Shown: positions 9,955 to 62,585 of the stretch, in pieces | How the letters are laid out: every line of letters begins with the position of its first letter | How positions within the stretch are numbered: position 1 is the stretch's first letter | IMG/VR virus record: IMGVR_UViG_3300036760_001167 | Location: 32,001-96,000 of that record | DNA length: 64,000 nt | Source: a virus | Direction: 5' to 3' (one strand) | Position numbers and translations under genes: made by a program | The notes under the pieces: generated by a model | Database searches by the model: none | Told to the model about the DNA's origin: nothing | Seen by the model: the letters and a program-made list of their open reading frames with translations, nothing else

Positions 9955-10054
9955 TTCATTATCGGCAGCGGCGGGCCCCGGGAGCACCGCCCGATCGGGC
10001 CGTTTCCGGCCCTGGGGCGGCCTAGGCGGAAGGTCTAGTGTGGCGCGCACTAGT
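9955..10054 (-). promoter_or_regulatory. Conserved promoter/operator element, copy 2
   Basis: Plus strand attatcggcagc ... cctagg-cggaaggtctagtgtggcgcgcactag, same spacing as copy 1. Confidence 0.8.
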
Positions 10055-11432: not shown

Positions 11433-11532
11433 ATCATTATCGGCAGCCGTGCCCCCGCAGCGTACCGGCCGAAGGGCCCGAGATCGCCTGGGCGTCGGCC
11501 TAGGCCGGAGGTCTAGTGTGGCGCGTACTAGA
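11433..11532 (-). promoter_or_regulatory. Conserved promoter/operator element, copy 3 (overlaps the terL stop)
   Basis: attatcggcagc ... cctagg-ccggaggtctagtgtggcgcgtactag. Confidence 0.8.
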
Positions 11533-13306
11533 TCCTGATGCGCTGGCCCGGCTTCTTGGGCGCGGGCTTCTTCGCGCGGCGCCGCTCGTCGGCCTCGCGG
11601 CGGAGCCGGCGCGCGTAGGACTCCTGCGGCTCCGCGGGCTTCGGCTTCCGCTCGGGCCGCGGCGGCGCGGGCTGCTCCGCGGGCTCCGGCTGCGCGTCCT
11701 CGCCGGGCTTCGGGTCCGTCTCGCGCGCGTACGCGCTCCTCTTCTTGGGCTTCGCGCCCGCGGCGATCGCGTCGCCGCGCGCCTCCCACGACAGCGCGCC
11801 GGCCGCGGCGGCGTCGATCTTGTTCGGGGACATCGGCGCCTCCTTCGAGATCGTCCAGAGCTGCCGGCCCTCGTCGTCGTACGAGGCGATCGGCTTCCTC
11901 CGCGTGTTCTCGACGTGCCGCGCCATCACCTCGTCGCCGTCGTGCGTGACGTCGCCGGCCTTGATCGACGCGGCGTACTTGCGGACCATGATCGCGGCCT
12001 GCTTCGGCCGGGACATCAGCCACGCGACCACGACCTTGTCGCCGTACTTCCCCTGCCACCTGTCGAGCAGCGCCTCGATGTTCGCGTACTGCGAGCCGGG
12101 GTCGACGTAGACGCGCCAGACCGACCAGGTCTCCATCGCCTCGGAGAGCGTGCCGTCGACCTCGTCGAAGTCGTGCTCGTAGTCGTCGTTCGCGGTCTCC
12201 GGCTTGGTCCAGATCCCGAGCGGCCACTGCCAGCCCGAGTCGACCTCGGTGGCGACCATCGCGAGCGCGTCCTCGTAGCGGGCGCCGTCGACGCCGACCG
12301 TGACCAGCGAGCCGGGCTTCGGCTGCTCCCGCTCCCTCTTGAGCTTGCGCCAGCGCTCCCCGTCGAACGCGCGGTCCTCGCCGGGCACCACGCGGTTGAG
12401 GAAGTAGCGCTCCGCCTGCGCGAGCTCGCCGCGCTTGAGGAGGTCGTCGATCTCGGACGAGATCCGCTCGGTGTCGACCCACCAGCTCGAGCCGTACAGG
12501 TTCCTGAGGACGCGCATGCGCTCGCGCTTGTTCTTGATGGAGCCGCGGCCGCCCTTGCCCATCATCCTGAAGACGCCGACGCCGGACTCGTGGGTCGCCT
12601 GCGCGACGCTCTGCTCGCTCGGGTCCCACGCGTTGCCGGTCTCGAGGAAGCGGCCGCCCATGCCGGCCAGGTTGCGGCGCTGCGTGTCGGCGAGCTTGCG
12701 GCCGCCGTTGCGCTTGGTCCAGTCGTGCGCCTCGTCCTCGACCGCGAACGTGATCCGCTGCCCGAGCCGGCTCCGGGCGCTCGCGGTGACGGGCTCGATC
12801 TTGCCGCCGTTCGGGAGGTTGATCCTGGTCTCCCCGGTGTCCGGGATCTCCGCCTTGAGGTTGCCGAGCTCGATCATCGGCACCAGCGATCGCCAGACGT
12901 TGGCCGTCTGGTCCTCCGAGACCGCCGTGACCTGGATCCACGGCGTCGCCCACGGCCGGCCGACCGGCTCGCCGTCCGCGTCCCACCCGTCGAACAGCAC
13001 GGGGCCGAAGGACTCGACGATGATCATGGCCGCGGCGAAGGGCCCCTTGCCGAGCTTCTGCGGCTCGACGATCTGGCCGCCGCGGTTGTAGCGGAACGCG
13101 CCGCTCGGCTTGGTCAGGTCCTTGACCGCGTCCGGCTTCAGCTCGTAGAAGTTGAGGACGAACTCCTGCTGCCAGTCCGACAGCAGGAACGGCTCGCCCG
13201 CGAACTCGCCGTCGGGGATGACGCACAGGTCCTGGATCGCGTCGAGCACTGCCCACCCGAGCGTCGGCAGCTCGCCCTCCGTGCGCGGCCCGCGCCAGCC
13301 CGTCAC
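11528..13306 (-). CDS. terL: Terminase large subunit (actinophage type)
   Basis: PTLGW N-terminus, PQKLGKGP Walker A, AVSEDQT, EDEAH Walker B, TGNAWDP, GVDGA nuclease motif, KIDAAAA. Confidence 0.95.
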   Translation of the reverse strand: MTGWRGPRTEGELPTLGWAVLDAIQDLCVIPDGEFAGEPFLLSDWQQEFVLNFYELKPDAVKDLTKPSGAFRYNRGGQIVEPQKLGKGPFAAAMIIVESFGPVLFDGWDADGEPVGRPWATPWIQVTAVSEDQTANVWRSLVPMIELGNLKAEIPDTGETRINLPNGGKIEPVTASARSRLGQRITFAVEDEAHDWTKRNGGRKLADTQRRNLAGMGGRFLETGNAWDPSEQSVAQATHESGVGVFRMMGKGGRGSIKNKRERMRVLRNLYGSSWWVDTERISSEIDDLLKRGELAQAERYFLNRVVPGEDRAFDGERWRKLKREREQPKPGSLVTVGVDGARYEDALAMVATEVDSGWQWPLGIWTKPETANDDYEHDFDEVDGTLSEAMETWSVWRVYVDPGSQYANIEALLDRWQGKYGDKVVVAWLMSRPKQAAIMVRKYAASIKAGDVTHDGDEVMARHVENTRRKPIASYDDEGRQLWTISKEAPMSPNKIDAAAAGALSWEARGDAIAAGAKPKKRSAYARETDPKPGEDAQPEPAEQPAPPRPERKPKPAEPQESYARRLRREADERRRAKKPAPKKPGQRIRI

Positions 13307-18026: not shown

Positions 18027-18680
18027 TCATGCGGACGCCAGCCGCGCGGGCCGGAGCGCGTCGGCCGCGCGCCGCGGCGCCCTGCGGAGCCACGCGCGCA
18101 GCCTGTGCGGCCACGTCCTGAGCCTGACGACCGCGAACGCCTCGGGCCTGTAGACCGAGACGGCCGCCTGCTGCTGGACCCTGATCGCGGTCAGCGGCCT
18201 GGCGAAGAACTCGTCGCCGACCGACTCGCCGACGTCGACCGCGGGCGTGCCCTGGAGCCAGAGCTGGGCGGCCTGCCCGAACGCGCCCACGACCGCCTGG
18301 TCGCCGCGCGTCCTGGCCGTGCCCACCGCGAGCTGGGTCCGGCGCTCGACGCGGCGGGCGCAGCGTCGGATGGCCCGCTCGTTGGTCTCCAGCGGCCGGA
18401 CGCGGCGGCGCTCGGCGCCGGAGTCCTCGATCCTGCGCGCGACGAAGCCGCCCAGCGCGTTCTGGAACAGCGGCAGCGCGCGGGCCTGCACGTACGCCGT
18501 GACCGCCGGCCCGTCACCGGCCATGTCCGCCGTGATCGGCAGGAGCATCGCGACCCGCTCCACGTCCGTGTCCACGACGTCGAAGTCGAACTCGCCGCCG
18601 CGCCTCTTCCGCTCGGCGATGTACCTGACCCTGTTCGACCTGACCTCGCCGACCGCCACCATCTCCTGGATGCCGCTCAT
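18027..18680 (-). CDS. Truncated/degenerate HK97-fold major capsid homologue
   Basis: SNRVRYIAE; FDVVDTDVERVAMLLPITADMAGDGPAVTAYVQAR; AVVGAFGQAAQLW...DEFFARPLTAIRVQQQAAVSVYRPEAFAVVRL resemble conserved HK97 capsid segments; only 217 aa. Confidence 0.7.
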   Translation of the reverse strand: MSGIQEMVAVGEVRSNRVRYIAERKRRGGEFDFDVVDTDVERVAMLLPITADMAGDGPAVTAYVQARALPLFQNALGGFVARRIEDSGAERRRVRPLETNERAIRRCARRVERRTQLAVGTARTRGDQAVVGAFGQAAQLWLQGTPAVDVGESVGDEFFARPLTAIRVQQQAAVSVYRPEAFAVVRLRTWPHRLRAWLRRAPRRAADALRPARLASA

Positions 18681-20462: not shown

Positions 20463-22952
20463 TCACCGGGTCCGCGCCTGGTCCGCGCCGGTACTTCCGG
20501 TACTTCCGGGGATGCGGACGACGAAGAGCTTCGTCGTGACGAGGCCCCGGCCCTGCACCCAGACCTTCCGCTTCCTGGTGTCGCGACCCCGGTCGTGCGA
20601 CAGCACGCCCTGCTCAGCCCACTTGTCGAGCACGGGCTTCGGGTCGCGCAGCCCCGCGTACTCGCGGAGGATCAGCGCGAGCGTCGACCGGCCGATGATC
20701 CCCACCGTGTCGTCGCCGAACCAGACGCCCCAGCGCTGCTGGCCGATCGGCTCCTCGTTCGCGGGGAAGAACCGGCCGCTGCCGAGCAGCGCCTCCTTCA
20801 CCGCGTTGAGCCCGCGCTCGCCGATGTCGGCGCCCTCGTCCGCGCCGGACCTCTGCAGCTTCTCGAACACCGAGAGCGCCGCCCCCTCGAGCTCGCCGTA
20901 CTCCACGCCGCGGCCGCAGACCCGCGCGAGCTGCGCGAAGCCCGCGACGCACGTCGCGACCTGCCCGGCCTGCGCGAGCTCGACCTGCTGGCCGCTGGCC
21001 TCTGGCGCCATCTCGAGGAAGAGCCGCTTCTGGAGCGCGAGGAACTCGGCCGGCCGCGGGTCGCGCGCCAGCCACCGCAGCGGCCAGCCGTGCGCCCGCT
21101 GCGCCGACGCGAGCATCCGCAGGTGGGCGTCGACGTCGTCGGCGAGCGGCGAGTACAGCTCCATGATCCTGCGGCGCACGCCCGTCAGGCCGGACTGGAT
21201 CGTCAGCCGCGCCTCGCCGGTCGACAGCACGCACGCGCTCCAGGTCGAGGTGCCGGACACGTTCCGGCCCGCGTTCCCCGCGATCTTCCGCTCGCGCCCC
21301 TCCATCAGGTTGAACAGCATCTGGGTGAACTGGTCCGGCTCGAGGCCGAGGTTCGCGGCCTCGTCGAACCAGACGGGCAGGACGCCGACCTGCTTGAGCA
21401 CGTTCCCCGGCGCCTTCGCGGTCTGGTTCCACGAGCGGTAGAGCCGCCCGTCGGGGCGGCGCGCGTCGCCGAGCTGCTGGAACGCCATCTCCGCCGACTC
21501 GGACTTCCCGGTGTGCGACTCGCCGGTCACGTGGACCGTGAAGATCTGCTTGTCCTTCAGCAGCGTGACGTAGAGCGCGCCGAGCGGGAAGCCCAGCAGG
21601 ACCGCGAGCTTCGGCCAGCCCGCGGCCTCGTCGACGACGTTCCTCCACTCGCGGCGCGCGTCGTCCTCCGCGACGTCGGCCGCGTCGCCGTAGACGACGA
21701 GCTCCTCCTTGCCCGGCGACGCCTCGAGCTCGCCCGGCACGCGCAGCTCGCCGCCGCGCCACTCCGCGCGCGTCAGCACTGGCCTCGTGCGGAACAGGCC
21801 CGACGCGCGGACCGCCGACAGGAACTCCGCGACCGCGGCGCACTCGGCGGGCATCAGGTCCGGCCCCTCGAGCTCGGACAGGAGCTGCCCGCGCTTGTCC
21901 GCGGTCATGAACGTCGACGGGACGACCATCCGCTTGGGCGCCGGGCCCGCTCCCTCGAAGGTCACGTCGTAGCCGCGCACCTGGCCGTCCTCGTCGACGA
22001 GCACCTCGTGCGGGACCACGTTGAACTGGGCGCGCGCGATCCACCTCTTGTCGCGCCTCTGCGAGAGCCAGCCGGAGCGGAACGCCCAGCCGAGCGAGTC
22101 GGTGTCGGGCGGGCGATCGGCGGCGGCGCGCCTCCGCGCGGGCCTCGCGCCGTCGGCCTCGAGGACCAGCGCCCTCAGCTCTGCGGCGGTCCCGCCGCGG
22201 TCGAGCCAGTCCGACACGTCCTCGCCGCGCGACTCCCGCTCCTCGAGGCCCGGCAGGTCGACGGCGACCGCGTGCACCCCGCGCGACGCGAGCGCGTCCA
22301 TCGCCGCGGCCCGCGCCCGCTTGCCGTGCGCGTCGTAGTCGCGCAGCACGGCGACCCTGAACCCCTCGAGCTTCCTGGCCAGCTTCGCGGTCAGGTGCCC
22401 CTCCGACGGGGCCGTCGCCTGCAGCCCCTCGGCGCGCAGCCTGTCGACGTCCTTCTCGCCCTCGACGACGAGGACCCAGCGGTCCTTCTCGAGCGGCGGC
22501 ATGTAGAGCAGCGGCCCCGGCTTGCGCGGCCTCCACCGGAAGTCCTTGCGCCAGCCGTCGGGCCACTCGTAGCGGACCTTGGTCGCGCCCTCGTACTCGT
22601 AGCGCGCGACCTCGACCGCGCCCGCGTCCTCGGGCCGCACGCCGCCGCCGGGGTTGCGCGTCCGCCACAGCCGCCCGGCCTCGCGCGGCGGCGGCGCGGA
22701 CCCGAACGCCTCGAAGATCGCGTCGACGTGCTCGCGGTCGCGCTCGCCGCCCGCGTCGAGGCCGCAGCCGCCCTTCCCGCTGAAGCAGTACAGCAGCGCC
22801 TCGCCCTCCCGCGATCGCTTCACCGCGAACGACGGGCTGTTCGAGCCGTCCCCTTCGCACACGGGGCAGAACGTGCGGAAGGAGCCGGCGCCCGACGGGA
22901 ACGTCGGCCAGCCCCGGCCCTCGAGGAGCTCGAGCAGCTCGTCGTACGTCAA
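20463..22952 (-). CDS. DNA primase-helicase (Zn finger + TOPRIM + DUF927-like helicase)
   Basis: CPVC...C zinc finger; VVEGEKDVD and DYD TOPRIM motifs; GESHTGKS Walker A; WFDE Walker B; LSTGE. Confidence 0.85.
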   Translation of the reverse strand: MTYDELLELLEGRGWPTFPSGAGSFRTFCPVCEGDGSNSPSFAVKRSREGEALLYCFSGKGGCGLDAGGERDREHVDAIFEAFGSAPPPREAGRLWRTRNPGGGVRPEDAGAVEVARYEYEGATKVRYEWPDGWRKDFRWRPRKPGPLLYMPPLEKDRWVLVVEGEKDVDRLRAEGLQATAPSEGHLTAKLARKLEGFRVAVLRDYDAHGKRARAAAMDALASRGVHAVAVDLPGLEERESRGEDVSDWLDRGGTAAELRALVLEADGARPARRRAAADRPPDTDSLGWAFRSGWLSQRRDKRWIARAQFNVVPHEVLVDEDGQVRGYDVTFEGAGPAPKRMVVPSTFMTADKRGQLLSELEGPDLMPAECAAVAEFLSAVRASGLFRTRPVLTRAEWRGGELRVPGELEASPGKEELVVYGDAADVAEDDARREWRNVVDEAAGWPKLAVLLGFPLGALYVTLLKDKQIFTVHVTGESHTGKSESAEMAFQQLGDARRPDGRLYRSWNQTAKAPGNVLKQVGVLPVWFDEAANLGLEPDQFTQMLFNLMEGRERKIAGNAGRNVSGTSTWSACVLSTGEARLTIQSGLTGVRRRIMELYSPLADDVDAHLRMLASAQRAHGWPLRWLARDPRPAEFLALQKRLFLEMAPEASGQQVELAQAGQVATCVAGFAQLARVCGRGVEYGELEGAALSVFEKLQRSGADEGADIGERGLNAVKEALLGSGRFFPANEEPIGQQRWGVWFGDDTVGIIGRSTLALILREYAGLRDPKPVLDKWAEQGVLSHDRGRDTRKRKVWVQGRGLVTTKLFVVRIPGSTGSTGADQARTR

Positions 22953-23431
22953 GCCGTGGCCCCGATCGGTCGGAGCAGGTCGAGGAAGAAGTCCGCGTGC
23001 CGGGGAGCGAAGAACTCGCGGCCGTGCGCCGGGAGGATCCCGGCGCGGCGCGCCTCGTCGAGCAGGAACCGCTCGAGGGCGCGTGGGTCAGGCACCCACT
23101 CCGCGTACAGAACCTCCTGGCGCTCGCGCTCCGACGACGAGTACGCGGCGAGCCTGCTCCGCATGGAAATCGTCCTGCCAACCTTCACCCACTCTGCGAA
23201 GTCGACGACGTAGACGAAGCCGCCGCCCTCGTAGGTGGGGCGGAGCCAGACCGAGAACCCGAGTCCAGCCGCGGCCAGCCGCCTGACCTCCGCGACCCCG
23301 AGCCGCTGTACCGCGCCGTAGTGCCCGCCACTCGAGCAGTAGGAGTCGGCCCCCCTCGCAGTTACCGCATCCTGGCAGCCGAGAATGGAGCAGACCCTGT
23401 TGGTCGGCTCTCGCCTCCGCGCTCCGTTCAC
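22949..23431 (-). CDS. GIY-YIG/T5orf172-like endonuclease
   Basis: GFVYVV...VKVGRT...RL, LERFL, GREFF; codon usage less GC-biased than its neighbours. Confidence 0.65.
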   Translation of the reverse strand: MNGARRREPTNRVCSILGCQDAVTARGADSYCSSGGHYGAVQRLGVAEVRRLAAAGLGFSVWLRPTYEGGGFVYVVDFAEWVKVGRTISMRSRLAAYSSSERERQEVLYAEWVPDPRALERFLLDEARRAGILPAHGREFFAPRHADFFLDLLRPIGATA

Positions 23432-47496: not shown

Positions 47497-48022
47497 TGCC
47501 CACCTCCATGGGTCCGGGAAGTTGGGGCGTCGCCACCGGCGGAGGTGGCGAGAGGGAGGTGGGGTGCGGCACCGAACGTAGCCGGGCCGCTTGCACCTCG
47601 CGTCGCGATGGCGACGCCTCCGAACTCCTAGGTCTCTGTCCAGTATCTTACACCCGCGCGGCGGCCTCCGCATCCTCCGGCGACGCGGTCGAGTACGCGT
47701 GCCAGACCAGCCCGAGCTGGTCGAACACCGTGGCGAGGTACTCGCCTGGCGGCACGTCCGCGCCGGTGGGCACCATCACGTACTCGCCGAACTCCCACTC
47801 CTCCGCGCGGCGCGGCGCCGGCGCGGTGAACTCGGCCTCGGTCGGCTCCGCGTCCGGGTCGACCTCGGCCCAGACCATCACTCCGTCGCCGAAGGCCGAT
47901 CGCTGCCGCCGCACCGCGCGGACGACCGCGCCCCGCGGCAGCGTCATGGTGAAGCTGTCGCCAGGCGCCGGCGCGTCGCCGGCCAGCGGGTACTTGAACA
48001 TCTTCATGGTGCCTCCCTCTCG

Positions 48023-48967
48023 TCAGGCTGCCAGCGCCAGGAGCATCTTGTCCCTGGCCTTGGCGGCGGCGCCGCCGGGCAGCGTGCCCAGCACGCGGCT
48101 CTCCTCGGTGCGCGGGTTGCGCGCCCAGTCGTAGTACTCCCCGACCGCGTTCAGCGCCGCGTACTTGGTGTCGCGGAACGCCTCGAGGTTCGGCGAGTGC
48201 AGGTACAGGTCCACGACCTGCGCCCTCGCCGAGTCGGCCTGCGGCCTGTCGCCGATCACCTTCTCGAGCGCGGTCCGCAGGCGGCGCTCCGTGTACGGCG
48301 CCGCGAGCAGCCGCTCGAGCTCCGCCTGCATCGCGTCGCGGTACTGGAACGTCAGGCCCAGCGCCTCGCGCGCCTCGTGCAGCCGGCCGGCGATCGTCCC
48401 GACGTGCCGCGCGCTCCACCTGTTCGTCGCGCCGCGGACCGCCATGTTCAGGGTGTTCATGCAGACGACGCGGATGGACGTCGGGAGGCACGTGACCGCC
48501 TTCATCCCGTCGTGCGACGTCGTCAGCAGGAGGTACATAGCGTGCTCGTCGCCGCCGACCTCGAAGCCCTCGGTCCGCATCGCCAGGAAGACGGTGCGCC
48601 CGCCGCGGAGCGAGCCCGCGGTCTCGTACTTGCCGTCGCTCGAGTCGACGAGGTTGTCCGCGAACTCGAACGCCTCGCGGTTCTGGAAGGGCGAGTAGTC
48701 GGTGCCGACCACGCCGAAGGGCCGGCCGTCGGCCTTCCTGACCACCGCGCGCCGGCTCGGGATGTCGATCAGCTCGTACTCCTCGCCCGTCGTCATCGCG
48801 TCCGCGCGGCTGACCGTGAACACGGGGCGCAGCTCCACGTCCCAGTCCAGGCCGCCGAGCTTCAGCGCCTGCTTCGCCGTCATCGCGCCGTCCGCGGCGG
48901 TGCCGAGCCCGTGCCAAGGGACCCCGCGCTCCGCCGTGTAGGCGAGGCTCTCAACCTCTGCTGGCAT
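48023..48967 (-). CDS. DUF932 family protein
   Basis: PWHGLG, LDWDV, QNREAF, YETAGSLRGG, SHDG, RVVCMNTL. Confidence 0.9.
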   Translation of the reverse strand: MPAEVESLAYTAERGVPWHGLGTAADGAMTAKQALKLGGLDWDVELRPVFTVSRADAMTTGEEYELIDIPSRRAVVRKADGRPFGVVGTDYSPFQNREAFEFADNLVDSSDGKYETAGSLRGGRTVFLAMRTEGFEVGGDEHAMYLLLTTSHDGMKAVTCLPTSIRVVCMNTLNMAVRGATNRWSARHVGTIAGRLHEAREALGLTFQYRDAMQAELERLLAAPYTERRLRTALEKVIGDRPQADSARAQVVDLYLHSPNLEAFRDTKYAALNAVGEYYDWARNPRTEESRVLGTLPGGAAAKARDKMLLALAA

Positions 48968-50265
48968 GTCAGTCCTCCGTCCTGCCGGCGTTGCCGGCGT
49001 CGTGCGGCGCGCTCGTCGCGCCGTCCGGTACCTTGTCGTGAAACTCGTGCAGGCAGCGCTCGCGATGCGGGCCGCCGCCGCTCGGCCACCGCGGGTTGAC
49101 GACCTTCCACGGGTCGTCCCGCCCGTTGCCGCAGTCCGGGCAGCGATCGCGCGTCACGACAGCACGTCCGAGTCGAGGCGCAGCCAGTCCTCCAGGTCGC
49201 CGTCCGACGGCGCGCCGCCCGGCCCGTCGTCGTCCGGCGGGGCCGGCGGCTCGGGCAGCGCCGAGATCACCATCACCGCGGCCATCGCGCCAGCGAGCAC
49301 CGCGATCAGCGTCCACACCGCGCCCAGCCAGAAGTCGACCGTCCAGGTCGGCCACATCACGCGCGCCCCAGGTTGATCAGGTGCGCCATGTCGGTGACGT
49401 CCTTCTCCCTCGTCGACGCGAAGAGGACGTCCTTCTTCCACCACAGCTCCCAGACCGGAACGCCGGTCTTGGTCACGCGAACCTCTGCCCTCGTCAGCTT
49501 CATGCGGCCCTCCTGTCCCGCTCGGCGACGACGCGCCTGTACAGCGGCGTCGACTCGAGCCACTCGACCGAGTCCATCTCGATGACGCTCGCGCTCCACT
49601 CTTCCCAGGAGCGCCAGGCGATGTCGTACGCGTGCGACGCCTCGTCGAAGATCGCCGGGCACGGCATGCTCCACCAGTACGCGAAGCGCAGCCGCGACGC
49701 GTGCCGCACCATCCAGCGCTCGAGGTTGCGGACGTGGTCCGTCCCGAGGCTCGACACCTGCCGGCCGTTCCACGCGAGCCGCTGCTCGAACACGTCGTAC
49801 GCGCTCGGCCCGTAGTGCGGCATCGGCGGGCGCTCCGCGACGCCGACCGCGCCGCGGCACGGGCAGCCCTCGACCTTGCAGCGGCCCAGGATCGTGACGG
49901 CCCAGTCCTCGTTCCCCGCGAGCTCCACCGGCTCGTGGTCGAGGAGCGCGTGCCCGCACGCGTGGTCGTCCGTGTCGATCATCAGTCTCCCCTTCCCATG
50001 CCCATGTCGACGGGCGGCTCGTCGGTGATGTCGACGGCCTCCTCGACCGTGATCGGCTTCTTGCGGCCCGGCACCGCCACGCGGCGGCGGCGCTGCTCGT
50101 ACGCGCTCGTCTCCAGCGCCTCGTCCGGCGGCGGCGGCTCCTGGTCCAGCAGCGCCTCGAGCGCGACCTCGAACCGCGGCGCCGCGCGCGCGATCATGTC
50201 CATCTCGTCGGGCCGCAGCGGCCGCCCGAGCCGCTCGCGCCCCTCGTCCATCGCCTCCGCCAGGT

Positions 50266-52569
50266 TCACGACGCGCTCCCCATGATGCTGCCGTCGGCGG
50301 GCGGGTCGGCGACGCGGAAGGCGAGGTTGGCCTCCGCCAGGAACGCGGCGCGGTCGCCCTGGAGCAAGTAGCGGTACGCGTCCGCCTGGTCTCCCGCAGC
50401 GGCCGCGGCCGGCGCGTGGCTGCGGCAGTACGCGAGGCCTCCGGCGGGGTCGCGCGCGGCGCGCGTGCAGCCGGGCGCCCGGCACAGCGGGAGCGGGCTC
50501 GCGGCGCGGTACGCGCGGACCGCCTCGACGCCGTCGGCGACCTCGTCCCAGTCGGCGAAGGGGTCGTTGTCCACGGTGTCGCCGCGCTGGACCACGACTG
50601 GCTCGCCGCACTGCGGGCAGCACTGGTCACCGACCGCGGCGTTGGCGTGGGCGCAGCGGTCCGGCCCCCGCCGCAGGAAGCTCTCGGGGATGCCGTATAC
50701 CTGCGCGATCTGCGCGGCCGTCAGGCGCCTGGTCCCGCCTGGCAGGAGGACCGACACGCCCGCGCGGGACGCCTCGGTGATCGCCTGCTCGTGGGCCAGG
50801 TTCACGTCGAATCGCCGCGAGTAGGGGTCGAGCGGCGTGTTGTACTCCGCGGCCGATCGCCAGCGCCCGTCGATGTACCGGCCGGGCTCGCCCGCGTGCG
50901 GGTCCGGGATGCCCGCCGCCACGAACCAGGGCTCGACCCGCTCGACCCGCGTGGGCCGAGGCCACGGCGTCTCGTTCAGGCCGTCTACCCGCGGCAGGCC
51001 GGCCTGCGTCGGGCACGAGAGCCGGTGCAGCGTCGACTCCGCCGCGCCGCAGCTCGCGCAGGCGGCGGACAGCGCGGCCCGCAGTGCCGTCGGGTCGCTC
51101 GTCCACTCCGTCTGCCCCGGGACGCGAGCCTCGAGCGGGCCCGGCGTCACGAGGCGGCGGAGCGGCGCGTGGCTCTGCCAGGTCGTGATCTCCTGCGCGT
51201 CGCTCTCCTGCCGGAACTCCATCCGCCGCAGGTCGGGCTCGTCGAACTCGACGCCGCGCCAGCGCAGCGCCTGGCGGCCGTCCTCGCCGACGGTCAGCGT
51301 GTAGTCCGGCCCGTCCGGCCGCGCGACCTCGGCCGCCGCCGTCGTGAAGGCGATGTCCGCGGCCGAGTAGTCCGGTACCAAGGGCGCGCCGAGCCCGCGC
51401 AGCAGCCGGCCGAAGCTCTCGTCGTGGATCTGCGCCGTGACGCGCAGCCCGTCCGCGTCGGCCTCGGCGCCGGTCACGCGGCCGACCGCGCGGCTCCTCC
51501 GGAGTCGCTCGTCCGCCTGCACCCGGTAACGCGGCTCGACGCTGTACCTGCGCGGGTCCGGGCGCCAGTCGTTGAGCATCTCGTCCGAGACAGGGACCAT
51601 CGTCGCGAGGCGCCGCACGTCGTCCTCGGACGGCTCGCGCGCGAGCGCGCCGATCTGCTCCGTCAGCCGCTCCTGGTCCTCGAGCGCGCGGATCCGGTCG
51701 CGCAGCGCGTCGGCCTCGCGGATCACGTCGTCGACGTCGCCGGTCTCCTCGGGGCTGAGCGCGCCGGGGCGGGAGGAGACGTAGTCGTTCAGCGAGGAGA
51801 CGCGCCCCTCGAGCTCGTACCGCAGGTACGCGAGCGGGCTCGCCGAGCGGCCGCGGCCGGCTGCGCCGAGCGGCTCGAAGGTCATGCCGTCCCCGAGCAG
51901 CGCGGTCCGCCCGCGGCCCGGCTCGCCGTAGCTCATGAAGCTGAGGCGCATCTGCCGGTCGATCGCCTCGTCCTCGCGGCGCCGCGTCCGGCGGGCCAGG
52001 GCCCGCGCGCGGCGGTCGCGCAGCCTCCGCACGAGGCCGCGGGACTCCGCGGCCGCAGGGAGCGGCGGGACCGCCGCCGGTAGCGGCGGGACCAGGAGCT
52101 CGTCCGACTCCGGGTAGTAGACCGGCGGGACGACTGCCCGCGCGTCCTGGAGCATGGCGCGGGCCTGGTCGCGCGTGAGCAGCCCGTGGTCCGTCATGAG
52201 GCTCCGCCTGAACGCGTCGCCGTCGACGGAGTACCGCGCGATGAAGTCGGCGTGGCGCCGCGCGGCTCCGAGCTCCGCCGCCGTCTGGACCGCGTCGGCA
52301 CGCTCGTCCTCCGCGATCTGCGCCAGGACCTCGTCGCTCGGGCGGGCCTCGCAGGTCATGATGACCTCGACGCCAGCCGCGTTGCCCCACTCGTCGAGCC
52401 GGCCGATCGTCTGCACGTGCTTCCGGCCCTCGAGCTGGAGGCCCTCCGCCAGCTCCGCGCCGATCTTCTCGTTGAGCTCCATCATGACCGCGCGCGTCAG
52501 CACCTCGCCGCGCCGCGCCTCGTCGAGCGTGCGGTCGGGGATGACGACGGAGACCTTGATCTCGCTCAC
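50266..52569 (-). CDS. 767-aa mosaic protein built from short phage structural-protein-like segments
   Basis: Long coupled ORF with coding-like codon use; segments resemble portal, capsid, prohead protease, tail tube and TerL (see findings). Confidence 0.75.
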   Translation of the reverse strand: MSEIKVSVVIPDRTLDEARRGEVLTRAVMMELNEKIGAELAEGLQLEGRKHVQTIGRLDEWGNAAGVEVIMTCEARPSDEVLAQIAEDERADAVQTAAELGAARRHADFIARYSVDGDAFRRSLMTDHGLLTRDQARAMLQDARAVVPPVYYPESDELLVPPLPAAVPPLPAAAESRGLVRRLRDRRARALARRTRRREDEAIDRQMRLSFMSYGEPGRGRTALLGDGMTFEPLGAAGRGRSASPLAYLRYELEGRVSSLNDYVSSRPGALSPEETGDVDDVIREADALRDRIRALEDQERLTEQIGALAREPSEDDVRRLATMVPVSDEMLNDWRPDPRRYSVEPRYRVQADERLRRSRAVGRVTGAEADADGLRVTAQIHDESFGRLLRGLGAPLVPDYSAADIAFTTAAAEVARPDGPDYTLTVGEDGRQALRWRGVEFDEPDLRRMEFRQESDAQEITTWQSHAPLRRLVTPGPLEARVPGQTEWTSDPTALRAALSAACASCGAAESTLHRLSCPTQAGLPRVDGLNETPWPRPTRVERVEPWFVAAGIPDPHAGEPGRYIDGRWRSAAEYNTPLDPYSRRFDVNLAHEQAITEASRAGVSVLLPGGTRRLTAAQIAQVYGIPESFLRRGPDRCAHANAAVGDQCCPQCGEPVVVQRGDTVDNDPFADWDEVADGVEAVRAYRAASPLPLCRAPGCTRAARDPAGGLAYCRSHAPAAAAAGDQADAYRYLLQGDRAAFLAEANLAFRVADPPADGSIMGSAS

Positions 52570-53684
52570 CGCCCGCCTCCCCCGCCCCCGCGGATCCTCC
52601 AGGCGGCGATCGCGAGCCAGCCCTCGGCCTTGCGCATGGCGCGGTCGGGGTCCTCCCCGTTCGCCGCGCGCTCGAGCTCGCGGCTGCCCGCGGCGATGAC
52701 CCGGCTCGTGAGGCGCTCGCGGCGCCAGGCACGCAGGCGCGCCGTCACTGGCGCGCCTCCCACGCCTCGGCCATCTCGCGGATCGGCGGCAGCTCGTTGA
52801 CGCACGCGCTCCCGCCGTTGAACTTGTTCATGGACTCGTCCCAGTCCCACTGCAACTGGCGGCCGTTCGGCGCGACGACGACGAGCACGCGGCCCTCGTC
52901 GTCCCAGGGCGTGGTCACCTTGACGTACCCGAAGCCCAGGTAGTCCGCGCGGTGCTGGCGCTCCTCCTCGATCGCCGCGGGCATCGCGGCGTCGTCGAGG
53001 ATTACGGACAGCGTCGCGCGGCACTCCTCGAGGTAGACGTGCTGCATCAGCGACAGGTCGGCGTCCCCGCGGAACGTGCGCAGCTTGTCGCGCAGCTCGC
53101 GGAGCGCCTGCTGGGTGTAGCCGTTGTGGAGCTGCGAGGCGGCGGCGCGGTTGAGCGCCATCGACTCGCGCGTGATCCGCGGCTGGTCGTTGTCGACCAT
53201 CTGCTCGACCATCTCGTACTGCTCCTCCGTCAGCGCCACGATCCTCACGTCGTCCTCCTCTCGTTCGCGATGTTCCCGTCCCACGGCTTGCTCGACAGGT
53301 GCCAGCCACCGCACTCCGGGCACTCGTAGCAGCCCGTCTCGATGTGGCTGCGCCGGCGCTCGCCGTCCATCGCTCTCTTGATGATCCGCGCGAGCTCGCC
53401 CAGCGCGCCCTCCCTCGACTCGAAGCGGATCTTCCGCGCGCACGGGTCGTCGCCGAAGGTGCCGCGCCGCGCGGCGCTAGCGAGCGGCGCGACCGGCTCG
53501 TCCGGGTCGATCGTCAGCTGGATCGCCCGGCCGCCGTCCACCACCTCCGCGCCCGTGATGCTCGCGCCGACGCGCGAGCCCTTCCACGCGACGACGGTCC
53601 GCGTGCCGACGAGGCGCGCGGCGGAGCCGGGGAGGAAGAGGGTCGCCTCCCCGGCTGGGCACGTCATCTTGAAGGCGCGCTCGC

Positions 53685-54248
53685 TCACGCGTCGGCGCCG
53701 TCCTCGGGCACTGGCGGCAGCGCGTCGGTGGCCTCGGCGGCCAGGCGCTCTTGCGTGTCCGGCCACTCGCCGACGATCTCGGCGAAGGCCTGCGACTCGG
53801 CATCCGTCAGGTTCACGGGCTCCGGCTCCGGCCGCAGGAACGCGAGCCGGCCCTCCGCGCGCATGCGGCGGAACCGCCGCGGCGCGGCCAGGCGGAACAG
53901 GCTCAGCGACCATGCCCGCGCGTCCTCCTCGCCGCCGATCGCGCCGGCCACGCCCGCCAGGTGCATCGCGTGGCGGTACTCGTGGAGCAGCGTCACGACG
54001 GAGAAGTGGTCCATGACGATCATGCCGCCCGGCCCCTGCGCCGGGACGAACGCGCCCAGAACGCTCAGCGGCGCGAACCGCACGAGCGGCTCCGGCATGC
54101 CGTACGCGGCGGACACGGTGGCAATCCACTTCTCGATGGCGCGGCCTTGCTCGTCCATGGTGCTGCGCCAGAGCTTCGCCCTGACGAGCTCGCGCGTGGC
54201 CATGACGACCTCGACGCGGATGTGCGGGTACTTCCGGCTGTAGCTCAC
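53685..54248 (-). CDS. Putative zincin metallopeptidase
   Basis: TLLHEYRHAM (HExxH) with downstream EEDARAWS. Confidence 0.6.
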   Translation of the reverse strand: MSYSRKYPHIRVEVVMATRELVRAKLWRSTMDEQGRAIEKWIATVSAAYGMPEPLVRFAPLSVLGAFVPAQGPGGMIVMDHFSVVTLLHEYRHAMHLAGVAGAIGGEEDARAWSLSLFRLAAPRRFRRMRAEGRLAFLRPEPEPVNLTDAESQAFAEIVGEWPDTQERLAAEATDALPPVPEDGADA

Positions 54249-54460
54249 GTCAGATCCACTCCTTCTCTCTTCAGGGCCGCGCGCAGGTTGCGCCACGCCC
54301 TCGGGTCGGTGCGCCCCAGCGGGAACCGCTGGAGTATTCTGCCGTCGGGCCCGCGGAGCACGCCGTGCCCGCCGCCCGTCGGGTCTGGCTCGACGGTGCA
54401 GCCGTGCCGCACCGCCTCCAGTATCACGCGGCGGACGCCGTCGTCGCGCGGCCGCCTCAC
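54245..54460 (-). CDS. HicA-like small protein
   Basis: G.TVE..GGGHGVLRGPDG...TDPRAWRNLRAALKREG; no HicB adjacent. Confidence 0.55.
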   Translation of the reverse strand: MRRPRDDGVRRVILEAVRHGCTVEPDPTGGGHGVLRGPDGRILQRFPLGRTDPRAWRNLRAALKREGVDLT

Positions 54461-54692
54461 AGGTCCCTCCACTCTTCCATCTCGAGCCAGTCCGCGAGGC
54501 CCTCCATGCCCGCGCGGTCCATGGCCATCGCGGCCTCGCGCACCGCGTCGACGAGCCGGCCGTGCTGCTCGTCCAGGCTGTCGTCCTTCGGGTCCTGCCC
54601 GCTCGCGCGGCAGAGGCGGATCCACACGGCCTCGCCGACGGCGGTGCCTCGCGACCAGCGCTCCTCGACGTCGAGGTCGACCGTGTCGGGCA

Positions 54693-55685
54693 TCACTCGA
54701 CTCCCTCCCACATGTCCGCCTCGACCAGCTCGTCCAGCGCCGGGTCCTCGTCCTTCGCGCGGCCGTAGACGTCGACGCCGTGCAGCATCCACATGTGGTC
54801 CACGTGGTCCTGGCGCTCGTCGAACGTGATGCCGCACCTGAAGCACTTCCAGCTCGTCAGGACCGGCGAGCCCCACGTCTGCGGGTCGCGGCGGGTGCGC
54901 GCCTTCGCGCGGGCCGCGGTTGCGTCGTGCGACGGCAGGACCAGCGTGGTCCGCGGCGCCGCGTAGACGATCGGCTCCGCGACGGGCGCGGGGTGGCCCG
55001 CGTGCTTCGCGGCCGCCGCGACCAGCGCGTCGAACAGCTCCTGCGAGCCGGGCTTCCCGCTCATCTCGGGGTGGAACTGGACGCCCACCATCCAGCCCTC
55101 GACCGACTCGATGCACTCGACGACGCCGTCCGGCGACCAGCCCGTGGCGACGAACCCGGGCGCGACCTTCGCGACGGCCTGGTGGTGGATGCTGACGACG
55201 CTGCGCGTCACCTGGCCGAACGCCTTGCGGAGCCGCGAGCCCTTCGCCGATCGCACGGCGTGGTCGTGGCCCAGGTGGTAGCGGCCCGTCTCCGGGTCGC
55301 CCTGGATGTGCTGGTTGAGCGTGCCGCCCATGGTCGCGTTCAGGATCTGCGCGCCGCGGCAGATTCCCAGGATCGGCAGGCCCTTCTCGACGGCGGCCTC
55401 GATGCAGAGCGTCTCGACGAGGTCGCGCAGCTCGTTCGGGTGCTGCGCCTGCTTGTGCGGCTCGGCGCCGTAGAGCGAGGGGCTGATGTCGCTGCCGCCC
55501 GTCAGGAGGAGCGCGTGGTAGCGGCCGCTCCTCAGCGCGGCGATCGCCTTCTCGTCAGCGTAGGCCATGCACTTCGGGTCGCCGCCCGCGCGCCGCACCT
55601 TGTGGTCGGCGTGGCCCAGGACAAGTACCCGCGTCCGCGGCCTCGCGGCCGCCTTCGCCTTCTTCGTCGCCTTCGCGCTGGTCAT
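54693..55685 (-). CDS. Class I glutamine amidotransferase / peptidase C26 (PuuD-like)
   Basis: LLLTGGSDISP.LYG, RDLVE, LGICRGAQ.LN..GGTL.Q, SIHHQAV, GVQFHPE. Confidence 0.93.
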   Translation of the reverse strand: MTSAKATKKAKAAARPRTRVLVLGHADHKVRRAGGDPKCMAYADEKAIAALRSGRYHALLLTGGSDISPSLYGAEPHKQAQHPNELRDLVETLCIEAAVEKGLPILGICRGAQILNATMGGTLNQHIQGDPETGRYHLGHDHAVRSAKGSRLRKAFGQVTRSVVSIHHQAVAKVAPGFVATGWSPDGVVECIESVEGWMVGVQFHPEMSGKPGSQELFDALVAAAAKHAGHPAPVAEPIVYAAPRTTLVLPSHDATAARAKARTRRDPQTWGSPVLTSWKCFRCGITFDERQDHVDHMWMLHGVDVYGRAKDEDPALDELVEADMWEGVE

Positions 55686-55941
55686 GCTCCCACTCCTTCT
55701 TCGTTGACGATGGTGCACAGGCCGCCCTCTTCCAGCTCGCGGAAGAAGCGGTAGGACGAGGCGTCCTCGTGCATCGCGTGCTCGCTCCAGTTCCATGCTC
55801 GCTGCGCCATCTCCCGGCGGAACGAGCCCTTGTCGCTCTCGTTCCACGACTCCTCGCGGAGCGCGAGCTCCATCTCGCGCCACGTCTCGCCGGTGAGGAT
55901 GCTGCCGTCGGCGAAGATAACCGTCTTGGTCGCGGTCATGT

Positions 55942-56943
55942 TCACTCGACCTCCTCGAGCACCGAGCGGGTCGCGTCGAGCTGCGCCTGCAGCGTCGCCA
56001 CGCGCGCCTCGACGGTGCCGCGCGTCTCGCCGCTCGTCTCGAACCTGAGCAGCCAGGACGCGTCCTCGGTGGTGAGGCCGAAGGGGATGAGGTCGGTGAG
56101 CATCTGGGTGACGTCGGTGCCGCTGACGACGGCGCCTGCGAGCGCGCTCGCGAAGAGCGCCTGGCCGAAGCGGACCCACGCCGAGATCTTCTTGAAGTTG
56201 GTGGTGCCCGCGTGCGCCCTGACCTCGACGCTGCCGTGGCGCGGGTAGGCGTGCAGGTTGATGGAGCCGCGCGGGCCGACGGCGCCGATCGCGCGGAGGT
56301 CGCGGGCCCTCAGCAGCGCCGCGGTGCTCTCGCTCGTCCAGGCGGCGCAGTAGCTGTTGTTCCTACGGCTCGGCGCGACCATGCGGAAGATGAGGTCCTG
56401 GCGCTCGACGAACGCGATGACCTGCGCGCGGATCTCGTCGACGCCCTGCGCCCTCATGTCGTGGTGGACGTGCAGGCCGCACGAGCGGTTGACGGTCGCG
56501 CCGCAGTCGACGAGGGCCTGGCAGACAAGCTGGAGCTGGGCGAAGCCGCTCTCGCCGCGGAGCTTGGGGCTGACCAGCTCGAGGCCGGCGCCGTTGACGC
56601 TGCAGTCGGTCTTGAGCTCCCAGTGCGAGCCGTTCGACGCGCGGTAGCCGTACACGTCGGCGTTGATCCCGACGCGCGCCAGCGCCGCGAGGATCTCGCT
56701 GCGCCCTGGGCCCGTCAGCTCAAGCTCCACGCCGAAGGCGCGGCCCTGGTTGGAGCGCCGCGCACTAGTGGTCGTGGTGCCGCGCTGCGTGCCGTTCGTC
56801 CTGTTGTAGCGGGCGCGGTAGCAGGGCTTGCAGTAGTTGACGAAGCGGCCGCTGGACATGTAGAAGTTCGCGCGCGTCGCTGGAAGCGAGCGCTGGCAGC
56901 CGCGGCAGGTCTTCGTCTCGGTGCTCTCGGTGAAGTCAGGCAC
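55942..56943 (-). CDS. Amidoligase (COOH-NH2 ligase) family protein with N-terminal Zn ribbon
   Basis: FGVELE, WELKTDCS, ELVSPKL, NRSCGLHVH, SRRNNSYC, HGSVEVRAH.GT. Confidence 0.9.
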   Translation of the reverse strand: MPDFTESTETKTCRGCQRSLPATRANFYMSSGRFVNYCKPCYRARYNRTNGTQRGTTTTSARRSNQGRAFGVELELTGPGRSEILAALARVGINADVYGYRASNGSHWELKTDCSVNGAGLELVSPKLRGESGFAQLQLVCQALVDCGATVNRSCGLHVHHDMRAQGVDEIRAQVIAFVERQDLIFRMVAPSRRNNSYCAAWTSESTAALLRARDLRAIGAVGPRGSINLHAYPRHGSVEVRAHAGTTNFKKISAWVRFGQALFASALAGAVVSGTDVTQMLTDLIPFGLTTEDASWLLRFETSGETRGTVEARVATLQAQLDATRSVLEEVE

Positions 56944-56989: not shown

Positions 56990-57089
56990 TCTATTATCGG
57001 CCCCGGCGGCCGATCGCCGCACCGGACCAAGGGCCGGAGTCGGCCCGCGGGCCGCCCTAGGCCGCAGGTCTAGTGTGGCGCATACTAGT
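56990..57089 (-). promoter_or_regulatory. Conserved promoter/operator element, copy 4
   Basis: ctattatcgg ... cctagg-ccgcaggtctagtgtggcgcatactag, same spacing. Confidence 0.8.
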
Positions 57090-59408: not shown

Positions 59409-59693
59409 TCAGGAGTCCAGTCCGTGGAAGGGGTCTGCTTCGATCTTGGCCTGGAGGGCGGCGGCGGCGGCGGTGCGCTTCGCGTCCTGCGTGCGCTGCC
59501 AGTCCGCGGAGGCCGCTGCCTCGATGCGCGCGACGTGGCCGCTGTTGGTGACGACGCTGCCGTCCTCGCGGAGGAGCTCCCACATAGTGTCGCCCGCGCC
59601 CGCCGCGCGCTCGGTGGGCCGGATGGTGGCAACGCTCTTCGCGGTGTACCCCTTCGGCAACCTCATTCCCGTCTCCTTCTTCGTCGTGGTCAT
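59409..59693 (-). CDS. Hypothetical protein, likely leaderless
   Basis: ATG follows GATAAT of element copy 5 after a 6-nt gap; no Shine-Dalgarno. Confidence 0.65.
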   Translation of the reverse strand: MTTTKKETGMRLPKGYTAKSVATIRPTERAAGAGDTMWELLREDGSVVTNSGHVARIEAAASADWQRTQDAKRTAAAAALQAKIEADPFHGLDS

Positions 59694-59696
59694 GCT

Positions 59697-59775
59697 TCTA
59701 TTATCGGCTGCGCGGGCCCTCCGGCGTACCGCCCGGAAGGCTGGTGTCTCGCAGGGGGCGGCCTAGGTCGAAGGG
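59697..59775 (-). promoter_or_regulatory. Conserved promoter/operator element, copy 5
   Basis: ctattatcggc..gtaccgcccggaagg..cctaggtcgaagg (spacing 1 nt shorter). Confidence 0.75.
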
Positions 59776-62494: not shown

Positions 62495-62585
62495 TTCATT
62501 ATCGGCTCTTCGGGCCGTGCGGAGGATGGGCCTATCGGGCCGTCTTCTGGCGGCCGGCGGCCTAGACCCTTGGTCCAGTATAATC
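62495..62585 (-). promoter_or_regulatory. Conserved element copy 6, with a possible divergent TATAAT on the plus strand
   Basis: ttcattatcggc ... cctag with the same spacing; TATAAT at 62579-62584. Confidence 0.65.

Follow-up and report, generated by a model that had tools for sequence, protein, structure and literature searches.

Bacterial immunity can detect the greater part of the conserved core of phage particles (PMC13581612). DSAD1, the anti-DSR2 protein of SPbeta-like phages, competes with the tail-tube protein (TTP) for the same sensor cavity (PMC11263360). As a phage accessory protein that neutralizes a virion-protein sensor by competition, it represents the mechanism that we propose, by analogy, for the protein described here (P0001). 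DSAD1, however, addresses one sensor, whereas a single P0001 chain combines copied pieces of three putative triggers. The tube protein is not known to have contributed any part of DSAD1, and we are aware of almost nothing on how phages answer the sensing of their virion core.

CpmB, an alternative scaffold of SaPI1, is said to bind capsid protein in place of the genuine morphogenetic protein, which it mimics through a copied interface element; Dearborn et al. reportedly found in 2017 that a short motif for capsid binding is common to CpmB and the scaffold of the helper. In contrast to P0001, which is phage-encoded and has head and tail pieces, CpmB is satellite-borne, carries one motif for one target and acts in assembly. 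The CMS ORFs of plant mitochondria combine recombined fragments of essential-subunit genes with unknown sequence, and are said often to interfere with the source complexes (PMC11312923). They belong to another kingdom and genome type and are recent and usually deleterious, whereas P0001 is ancient and conserved. The polyvalent proteins of phages and conjugative elements, reportedly defined by Iyer et al. in 2017 through several enzymatic or anti-restriction domains, resemble P0001: they are large and modular conflict proteins that evolve fast and combine zinc ribbons with many unrelated modules. They differ in that no enzymatic or anti-restriction domain was detected in P0001 with Pfam, NCBIfam or PADLOC, the latter two giving no match of any kind. 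At the level of protein families, P0001 has islands homologous to the most conserved stretches of the portal (PF04860), major capsid protein (MCP; PF05065) and tube (PF25681) families. What is new is that three virion sources are fused in one polypeptide.

Genomic context of the gene

The source is an uncultured, actinophage-like phage from soil or sediment, with a 106.5-kb genome of 72% GC and direct terminal repeats. Within the window, the 64-kb stretch of DNA analysed here, the gene is located away from the particle-building genes, in agreement with an earlier note on this DNA that had placed it outside any structural operon (Table 1). A second sediment run contains pieces of the same stretch, with 0 differences over the covered parts.

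P0001 is a real gene. Codon-position GC values of 0.77 (GC1), 0.54 (GC2) and 0.97 (GC3) mark a coding frame, and the GC3 phase is uniform across the entire ORF. A Shine-Dalgarno sequence is present, and GTGA overlaps couple the gene to both neighbours. The relative P0003 begins at the same residue and so confirms the start. P0001 is evidently an accessory protein that looks expressed and is under selection.

The operon is preceded by a class A promoter-like cassette, of which the genome has six copies, each of them on the minus strand in an intergenic gap, while a class B motif precedes portal, protease and the TerL operon. By motif, with classes inferred solely from a k-mer search of intergenic gaps, the promoter is of a non-late class. 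A generic scan for sigma-70 promoters and terminators between 46.5 and 59.5 kb returned nothing.

Elsewhere in the window lies a separate gene with the same theme, encoding a shrunken MCP paralogue (E 1.5e-14; PF05065, E 2.4e-4). The phage also already packages a MuF-ART-kinase polyvalent protein.

Table 1. Positions of the described features in the window; aa, residues of P0001 unless stated otherwise; "own", encoded by the same phage.
Feature	Position	Strand	Remarks
ORF P0001, 767 aa	50266..52569	-	GTG start; GGGGGAGG 7 nt upstream; GTGA overlaps with both neighbours
N-terminal domain, aa 1-95	52285..52569	-	65% identity to P0003; predicted beta-alpha-beta-beta-alpha
Arg-rich helix, aa 170-206 (RRLRDRRARALARRTRRRED...)	51952..52062	-	helix 178-212; runs into portal-like piece
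Portal-like piece 1, aa 212-235 (YGEPGRGRTALLGDGMTFEPLG)	51865..51936	-	similar to own portal 247-268, portal-family HMM 234-255
Capsid delta-domain-like coiled coil, aa 247-311	51637..51831	-	similar to own MCP 10-77; AF2 pLDDT ~80
Capsid strand/spine-helix-start piece, aa 313-335 (..RRLATMVPVSDEMLND)	51565..51633	-	similar to own MCP about 205-229
Conserved island, aa 360-381	51427..51492	-	64% identical to P0003; termed protease-like in the earlier note
Tail-tube piece, aa 425-497	51079..51297	-	similar to TTP residues about 24-98
CCHC zinc knuckle, aa 504-522 (CxxC..H...C)	51004..51060	-	74% identical to P0003
Linker/insert, aa 523-612	50734..51003	-	nearly missing from P0003
Portal-like piece 2, aa 613-634 (TRRLTAAQIAQVYGIPESFL)	50668..50733	-	similar to own portal 279-300, portal-HMM 268-286; helix-turn-helix-like pattern
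C-terminal Cys/His modules	50416..50655	-	zinc ribbon 639-657, acidic conserved island 663-690, CCCH finger 696-718
12-gene gapless operon with P0001	49500..56943	-	amidoligase, GATase-like, eight small/unknown, P0001, 95 aa and 160 aa genes
Class A promoter-like cassette (GGCCCnnnnGGnCGGTnC, 17-19 nt, CCGATAAT)	56993..57044	-	49 nt ahead of the operon's first gene
Shrunken MCP paralogue, 217 aa, separate gene	18027..18680	-	MCP 190-241 and 339-401; non-structural region

Pieces of three virion proteins

The earlier note had read the ORF as a string of portal, capsid, prohead-protease, tail-tube and terminase motifs. All ten of its peptide strings are present at the residues given, save one that starts at aa 271 instead of 268. 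Set against shuffled and natural nulls, five of the ten motif claims hold, while those for the protease, the TerL nuclease, Walker A and two portal segments are not supported; portal, major capsid and tail tube thus stand as sources, and protease and terminase do not. It was also right that no segment is long enough for its parent fold: each piece spans 20–75 residues and scores below every family cut-off, whereas other genes of this genome code for the genuine portal, MCP and TTP.

The tail-tube piece, of which the note had picked out aa 448–477, covers about 70 residues and corresponds to a long β-hairpin (strands 42–64 and 71–87, with W-Q-S at the turn) and the following helix. A TTP-family HMM scores 7.4 bits on P0001 and 14.0 bits on P0003 at the same site (0/1000 shuffles each), hhalign gives E 2.3e-5 over 48 columns, and P0003 aligns with a real TTP in BLASTP at 36% identity over 69 residues (E 1e-7). 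A confident TTP model (pLDDT 84.7) adopts the canonical tube fold, with the copied piece as its long β-hairpin. The near-invariant W66, Q67, S68, T77 and W90 of the family are retained. Like most relatives, the piece carries WQS-xx-P-x-RR-x-VT, whereas the lineage of the phage's own TTP has WQSLFVIARRIT; in Smith-Waterman alignments it scores 68/88 with P0015 but 42/60 with the own TTP. Both this piece and the portal pieces are closer to the family consensus than to the phage's own TTP and portal. PF25681 (Phage_TTP_17) describes a β-sandwich of ~190 residues, of which P0001 has only the hairpin and helix (TTP 24–98). In TTP, this hairpin forms the inter-ring interface and is the contact of the Avs16 sensor (PMC13581612).

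Two portal pieces are supported. The first, which contains the proposed segment aa 220–235, is matched by PF04860 at profile positions 173–215 only (P0003, E 0.0016, 18.2 bits; P0001, E 0.064, 12.9 bits), against a gathering score of 39.1 bits for the ~320-position domain and 238 bits for the genuine portal; the family HMM (0/1000 shuffles) and hhalign (E 4.3e-4) agree. The second, with the proposed segment aa 615–632, matches the next block of the portal HMM, with 0/1000 and 1/1000 shuffles scoring as well. The own portal scores under the family median. Among 721 six-frame ORFs of the genome, P0001 is the best non-member match of the TTP and portal HMMs alike. Weak structural matches of other ORFs (e.g. 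portal at 5873–6325 and protease at 47648–48007 of the window) are at noise level, as shuffled queries give 6–15 of them. Two further proposed portal segments, aa 128–140 (p 0.02–0.06) and aa 238–250 (shuffles against the portal HMM), found no support. The note had also described the portal pieces as out of native order; the two supported ones are in native order, ~380 residues apart, and their counterparts (~247–268 and 279–300) adjoin in real portals. An intein or homing-endonuclease insertion splitting a portal was considered and rejected, as Pfam and PHROG searches found no domain of the Hint, LAGLIDADG or HNH type from aa 236 to aa 612. A weak HNH-finger match at aa 690–735 (phrog_144, E 0.04) was the sole signal.

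The capsid strand piece, proposed as capsid-like at aa 318–334, represents a P-domain strand and the beginning of the spine helix and corresponds to about 176–200 of HK97 gp5 as well as to the own MCP, to which it is nearly identical (PVSDEM). When an HMM of P0001 and P0003 was searched against the phage's 189 other ORFs, the own MCP came out on top (E 3.8e-5, 15.3 bits), and column-shuffled HMMs reached at most 10.4 bits proteome-wide (0/120). The major head protein family phrog_10 matches aa 317–334 (E 0.025, 18 residues). The segment called scaffold-like in the note (aa 268–302) turned out to be the N-terminal delta coil of MCP: aa 244–312 align with own MCP 1–100 at a Smith-Waterman score of 62, equalled by 1 of 2000 shuffles, and MCP tops the proteome. 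An AF2 model built without an alignment (pLDDT 45 overall) is unusable save for this coil (245–311). Whereas an HK97-fold MCP has contiguous N-arm, E-loop, P-domain and A-domain, only the two parts listed in Table 1 are represented, and there is no Pfam match to PF05065. The island at aa 360–381 may be a continuation of the MCP piece; the alignment of aa 318–400 with 209–294 of a related MCP is not significant (E 0.18).

For a protease origin of that island, no similarity to the own protease exceeds that of shuffles, PF04586 (S78) and PHROG give no match even at E 10, and S78/prohead clusters in the ESM Atlas search with the whole protein lie at 0.79, under the noise bar. As for the terminase, 534 of 1000 shuffles align as well with the own TerL as the Walker-A-like region (aa 200–235), and 199 of 1000 as well as the nuclease-like region (aa 715–767). 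Neither region has a Pfam or PHROG match, and the P-loop and RNase-H-like nuclease of a large terminase were not found in P0001.

Judged from these alignments, at least five islands evidently derive from three virion proteins, as old in-frame copies of discrete elements in them. We put at about 0.85 the probability that selection maintains a genuine patchwork of portal, capsid and tube pieces. Recent gene conversion from the structural genes was considered and rejected, the longest common nucleotide run being 15 nt.

Conserved islands, linkers and other modules

P0003 is the one relative of P0001 among 15 billion proteins, and an exhaustive HMMER search brought up no other. None was found in IMG/VR, JGI metagenomes, GTDB genomes or INPHARED phages, and a PDB sequence search gave only chance SEC14 matches. 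The two proteins, which are all that is known of the family, are collinear and ~55% identical over aligned, ungapped columns. Identity is 42–74% in the islands and 3–22% in the linkers, which change fast and are rich in indels; this difference indicates that selection acts on the pieces. The supported virion-derived pieces are located in islands of 42–64% identity. On this comparison, P0001 is built as beads on a string, with conserved islands between rapidly diverging linkers.

The N-terminal domain is among the best-conserved parts of the protein. It has no family match in Pfam, PHROG or NCBIfam, and an ESM Atlas search with the first 150 residues gave nothing usable. Matches of the C-terminal modules lie below cut-offs, with Zn_ribbon_3 at E 0.014 besides the HNH-finger match. 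This domain, like the Arg-rich helix, the helix-turn-helix-like motif and the zinc knuckles, would have no explanation in a pure decoy; together they suggest nucleic-acid binding.

Discussion

The copied elements are conserved and interface-forming and keep near-invariant residues of their parents, from which we infer that P0001 may work by molecular mimicry, at odds that we place slightly short of even. The non-late promoter class, the hairpin contacted by Avs16 and the conserved islands between fast linkers are compatible with a decoy or with interference in assembly. It also counts for mimicry that the non-structural region contains a further gene derived from MCP, which stands on its own. 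Since head and tail parts assemble separately, the fused pieces have no obvious assembly logic, yet they would follow an "all triggers in one" logic.

The reading that we prefer, by analogy and only tentatively since it is itself unlikely, is that of a decoy directed at the sensors with which a host detects virion proteins. Driven by its non-late promoter, P0001 would be produced earlier than the virion proteins or without regard to them; its islands would be presented to the usual binders of the parent elements and compete with the genuine proteins, filling the recognition sites of Avs-, DSR2- or CapRel-type sensors without a complete activating fold. The route would be akin to the blocking of the DSR2 tail-tube site by DSAD1, but with several trigger pieces copied and joined in one chain. 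The fuller version, a multi-epitope immune decoy that joins sensor-contacted elements, is made ahead of their parents and blunts several defences at once, is more doubtful still. Sensors recognize extended interfaces on folded cores, and their contact on MCP is the A-domain (PMC13581612), which is not copied in P0001; both count against a decoy. Moreover, sensor binding normally activates, so a decoy would need to bind without triggering.

That the tube and portal pieces are nearer the family consensus suits two other readings, a weapon against competing phages or a capture long ago, no less than it suits a decoy. In the former, the pieces would dock on the virion proteins of co-infecting relatives and poison head and tail assembly, as a dominant-negative jammer or superinfection exclusion factor, while the phage's own diverged proteins are spared. 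The pieces are indeed subunit-interface elements (tube hairpin, delta coil and strand, portal stem region), the tube piece is a better match to typical members of its family than to the own TTP, the portal of the phage falls below its family median, the motif-inferred promoter is of an early type, and CpmB would be a precedent; but the near identity of the MCP strand to the own MCP brings a risk of self-poisoning, and pieces of 20–70 residues may not fold or dock alone. We regard such a jammer as distinctly improbable. Accessory regions of phages often contain mosaic genes, and P0001 could instead be a nucleic-acid-binding regulator or accessory factor in which late-gene bits from old illegitimate recombination now serve as generic secondary structure, with no mimicry. 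The weak zinc-ribbon, HNH-finger and regulator matches and the Arg-rich helix speak for this, as does the lack of long nucleotide identity to the parent genes, which makes the capture old. A new fold, however, would not need the near-invariant residues of the parent families that the islands conserve, and it is also awkward here that three different virion proteins contribute, that every junction is in frame and that a second MCP-derived gene is kept in the same genome. We consider this origin unlikely, though one to be taken seriously.

The gene might also be what deletions have left of a structural module, either duplicated or foreign, and be open only because stops are rare at 72% GC. Shadow ORFs of 500–700 residues do exist in this genome, and the order portal, capsid, tube in P0001 is the gene order. 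This reading is already disfavoured and appears very improbable: the GC3 phase is 0.95–0.99 throughout, with a Shine-Dalgarno sequence and coupled starts, P0003 retains start, order and islands at ~55% identity while linkers decay, and simple collapse would not put the second portal piece after the tube piece. Finally, the delta-like coil and portal-like pieces could load a nucleic-acid-binding P0001 into procapsids for injection. The significant similarity of the coil to the delta region of MCP and the packaging of the MuF-ART-kinase protein are in favour of such a cargo, but the gene lies far from the structural module, without the late class B promoter, and a tail-tube hairpin has no part in head loading; we give this very little credence.

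Even if P0001 is neither a decoy nor a jammer, it clearly exemplifies a new gene put together from parts of three essential genes that are unrelated to one another. If it is one of the two, it would reveal a new route of origin for counter-defence or inter-phage weapons, namely the exaptation of late-gene fragments from the phage itself, and its pieces would be natural minimal "epitopes" that map what sensors or assembly partners recognize. Should the multi-epitope decoy hold, P0001 and the mini-capsid gene would together point to a general, undescribed counter-defence strategy in which a phage copies its own molecular patterns.

P0001 is a coding sequence with one collinear relative

The 767-aa accessory ORF P0001 is read in the true coding frame. 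The genome has a GC content of 72%, with practically all genes on the minus strand, and GC at codon positions 1, 2 and 3 of P0001 is 0.77, 0.54 and 0.97, with a high-GC phase that is unchanging along the whole ORF. GGGGGAGG lies upstream of the GTG start, and a GTGA overlap is present at both gene boundaries. Long ORFs that overlap P0001 in other frames gave no family matches; they are shadow ORFs of the kind commonly seen at high GC. The IMG/VR virus record (106,510 bp, its bases 32001-96000 forming the window) has direct terminal repeats, and the phage is distant from every isolate, with a portal that shares no more than 40% identity with Arthrobacter phage portals.

Word-indexed and exhaustive HMMER searches (5.8 and 1.8 billion sequences) recovered a single relative, P0003, a 777-aa protein from a Logan assembly; INPHARED, IMG/VR, JGI metagenomes and GTDB genomes contained none. 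The two proteins are collinear from the first through the last residue, apart from aa 523-612 of P0001 (90 aa), which are absent from P0003. Identity is 55% over ungapped columns and very uneven, at 42-74% in conserved islands and 3-22% in the linkers between them, where nearly all indels are located. Besides the probable source sample, a second sediment metagenome, from another study, contains pieces of window positions 50000-52800 with zero differences over the covered parts.

Capsid, tube and portal pieces within P0001

All ten peptide strings that an earlier note had likened to motifs of phage proteins are present where it placed them. We tested these motif claims at three levels, using curated libraries, the phage's own proteins and purpose-built family profiles. 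At the library level, Pfam Phage_portal was the best match of both P0001 (aa 201-236, E 0.064) and P0003 (E 0.0016), at the homologous site. Querying PHROGs with 150-aa segments returned phrog_10 (major head protein; P0001 aa 317-334, E 0.025), phrog_476 (major tail protein; P0001 aa 451-482, E 0.2) and, for P0003, phrog_12 (portal), which are the PHROGs of the phage's own major capsid protein (MCP), tail tube protein (TTP) and portal.

Against the 189 other ORFs, a profile of P0001 and P0003 ranked the phage's own MCP top (E 3.8e-5, 15.3 bits), matching its stretches 32-73 and 203-241, with the TTP third. Among 120 column-shuffled profiles, shuffled globally and inside 30-column blocks, no proteome protein exceeded 10.4 bits, and the real score of the TTP was never attained. 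The coil at aa 244-312 matched MCP 1-100 with a score of 62, attained by 1 of 2000 shuffles, and the MCP was the best protein of the proteome for this segment, as it was for P0003.

Family profiles were built from 21 TTP and 120 portal homologues. The former matched P0001 aa 451-476 (7.4 bits) and P0003 aa 471-519 (14.0 bits), with 0 of 1000 shuffles for each protein; portal-profile positions 234-255 matched P0001 aa 212-233 (0/1000), and aa 600-645 alone matched the directly following block, 268-286 (0/1000; 1/1000 for P0003). As a natural null we used 721 six-frame genome ORFs of at least 80 aa (161,716 residues, shadow ORFs included), among which P0001 was the top non-member match of both profiles, by a clear margin for the TTP (7.3 vs 2.6 bits) and a narrow one for the portal (4.4 vs 3.9). 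Profile-profile comparison with the TTP family gave E 2.3e-5 across 48 columns and with the portal family E 4.3e-4 across 22, and BLASTP aligned 69 residues of P0003 with a genuine TTP at 36% identity (E 1e-7).

The earlier assignments of aa 318-334 as capsid-like, aa 268-302 as capsid scaffold-like, aa 448-477 as tail-tube-like, and aa 220-235 and 615-632 as portal-like are thus borne out, and we consider a patchwork of three virion proteins, real and under selection, to be highly probable (roughly 0.85). Others did not hold: the proposed prohead-protease, TerL-nuclease and Walker-A motifs scored the same as shuffles and found no library support, and the supposed portal segments at aa 128-140 and 238-250 were not significant. 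The island at aa 360-381, formerly read as protease-like, is conserved (64% identity) and may perhaps continue the capsid piece, for which a database-wide BLASTP table gave a non-significant E of 0.18. Other weak resemblances of accessory ORFs to structural proteins were at noise level. The second-best proteome match of the P0001/P0003 profile was a 94-aa ORF (E 0.024, not significant), which also has a weak, non-significant tail-tube profile match (..EDG..T.S..V..I.A....WQ, 3.4 bits); it might be another hairpin-like mini-gene.

Identity of the copied elements

Aligned via the phage's own MCP, the capsid strand piece corresponds to HK97 gp5 residues ~176-200, which comprise the P-domain strand after the E-loop and the start of the spine helix; this helix is more retained in P0003 than in P0001. 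The coil preceding the strand matches the N-terminal delta (scaffold-like) region of the MCP. The phage's TTP, modelled with AlphaFold2 (pLDDT 84.7), has the canonical tube fold, as in mycobacteriophage, SPR and lambda tube proteins, with one long beta-hairpin (strands 42-64 and 71-87), W66-Q67-S68 at its turn, and then a helix. The tube piece of P0001 spans this hairpin and helix and retains the near-invariant W, Q, S, T and W of the TTP family. The two portal pieces form the most conserved stretch of the portal family, presumably the stem/clip region; neighbours in real portals, they lie ~380 residues apart in P0001, with the capsid and tube pieces in between. The stretches between and after the pieces carry an Arg-rich helix, CCHC knuckle, zinc ribbon and CCCH finger, for which every library match stayed below threshold.

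Nucleotide identity runs between P0001 and the parent genes do not exceed 15 nt, and the copies are therefore old. The capsid strand is almost identical to that of the phage's own MCP. The tube and portal pieces resemble typical members of their families more closely than they resemble the TTP and portal of this phage, and the hairpin tip of the own-lineage TTP is altered.

Genomic setting and promoter-like motifs

The genuine virion genes are all sited away from P0001, which is gene 10 of 12 in a gapless operon. At the operon head, the amidoligase has an endonuclease-VII-like N-terminus and, together with the glutamine-amidotransferase-like gene, may form a peptide or metabolite modification cassette. 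The TerL gene lies ~12 kb upstream of the portal gene, with an RtcB ligase and other non-structural genes in between. The protein after the portal, which combines a MuF/portal-extension N-terminus with ADP-ribosyltransferase and PI3/4-kinase/HipA-like domains, is polyvalent and probably injected. A truncated T5orf172/GIY-YIG-like ORF of 79 aa adjoins the primase-helicase gene and is a possible homing-endonuclease remnant.

The phage also encodes a shrunken, 217-aa MCP paralogue (phmmer E 1.5e-14 to its own MCP) that retains MCP 190-241 and 339-401 and is without the delta domain, the E-loop and most of the A-domain. It is free-standing amid non-structural genes and had no INPHARED match.

A promoter-like cassette of ~50 nt, composed of GGCCCnnnnGGnCGGTnC, 17-19 nt and CCGATAAT, occurs in six copies in the genome, all intergenic. 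One copy is located 49 nt upstream of the operon, and two of the six lie 6 nt ahead of an ATG, a spacing that points to leaderless transcripts. A second motif, GGTGTAAGAT, is a candidate late promoter, found ahead of the portal gene, the protease gene and the TerL operon and in two other places. Because the cassette upstream of the operon differs from GGTGTAAGAT, these motifs alone make it probable that the operon and the virion genes are regulated separately.

Coordinates of P0001 and associated features
Feature	Position	Strand	Match
P0001	window 50266-52569	minus
P0001 operon	window 49500-56943	minus
Amidoligase and glutamine-amidotransferase-like gene, operon head	window 54693-56943	minus	phrog_2443, 1e-39; phrog_7218, 3e-25
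DUF932 protein, just downstream of operon	window 48023-48967	minus	DUF932, 6e-49; phrog_1221
MCP paralogue, 217 aa	window 18027-18680	minus
T5orf172/GIY-YIG-like ORF, 79 aa	window 22949-23188	minus	E 0.0015
ORF of 94 aa	window 59409-59693	minus
TerL, large terminase gene	window 11528-13306	minus	phrog_19179, 3e-79
Portal	genome 16-31 kb		PF04860, 1.5e-70
MuF-ADP-ribosyltransferase-kinase protein	genome 16-31 kb; L003:8980-11163, outside window	minus
S78 protease	genome 16-31 kb
HK97-type MCP	genome 16-31 kb
Tail tube protein	genome 16-31 kb
Promoter-like cassette copies	window 56993-57044, 59700-59750, 62498-62550, 7558-7610, 9958-10010, 11436-11490	minus
GGTGTAAGAT motif	window 47654, 14496, 10383	minus
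GGTGTAAGAT motif	genome 30991, 26607

Possible roles of P0001

We favour competitive mimicry as the mode of action, because what has been copied is a set of discrete interface elements, because the residues retained are the parents' invariant ones, and because the joining of head and tail pieces fits only a protein that handles virion proteins in general. A regulator in which captured pieces are simply re-used would account for the nucleic-acid-binding-like modules but fails to account for the retained invariant residues, and we regard it as doubtful. The consensus-like character of the tube and portal pieces would suit a jammer of rival phages well, although we judge this role unlikely. Since the patchwork appears to be real and selected, a simple relic is improbable, and a role as capsid cargo seems more improbable still.

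In bacteria, STAND sensors detect MCP, portal and tube proteins, and one of them, Avs16, touches the conserved hairpin of the tube protein (PMC13581612); a phage inhibitor can work as a competitor of the tube protein at the sensor (PMC11263360). With such sensing and such an inhibitor both published, the most attractive reading, put forward tentatively, is that P0001 may be a multi-target decoy for virion-protein sensors. Our literature searches found no published description of accessory proteins made of virion pieces in this way. The particular feature of P0001 is that pieces from three sources are concatenated in one conserved polypeptide.
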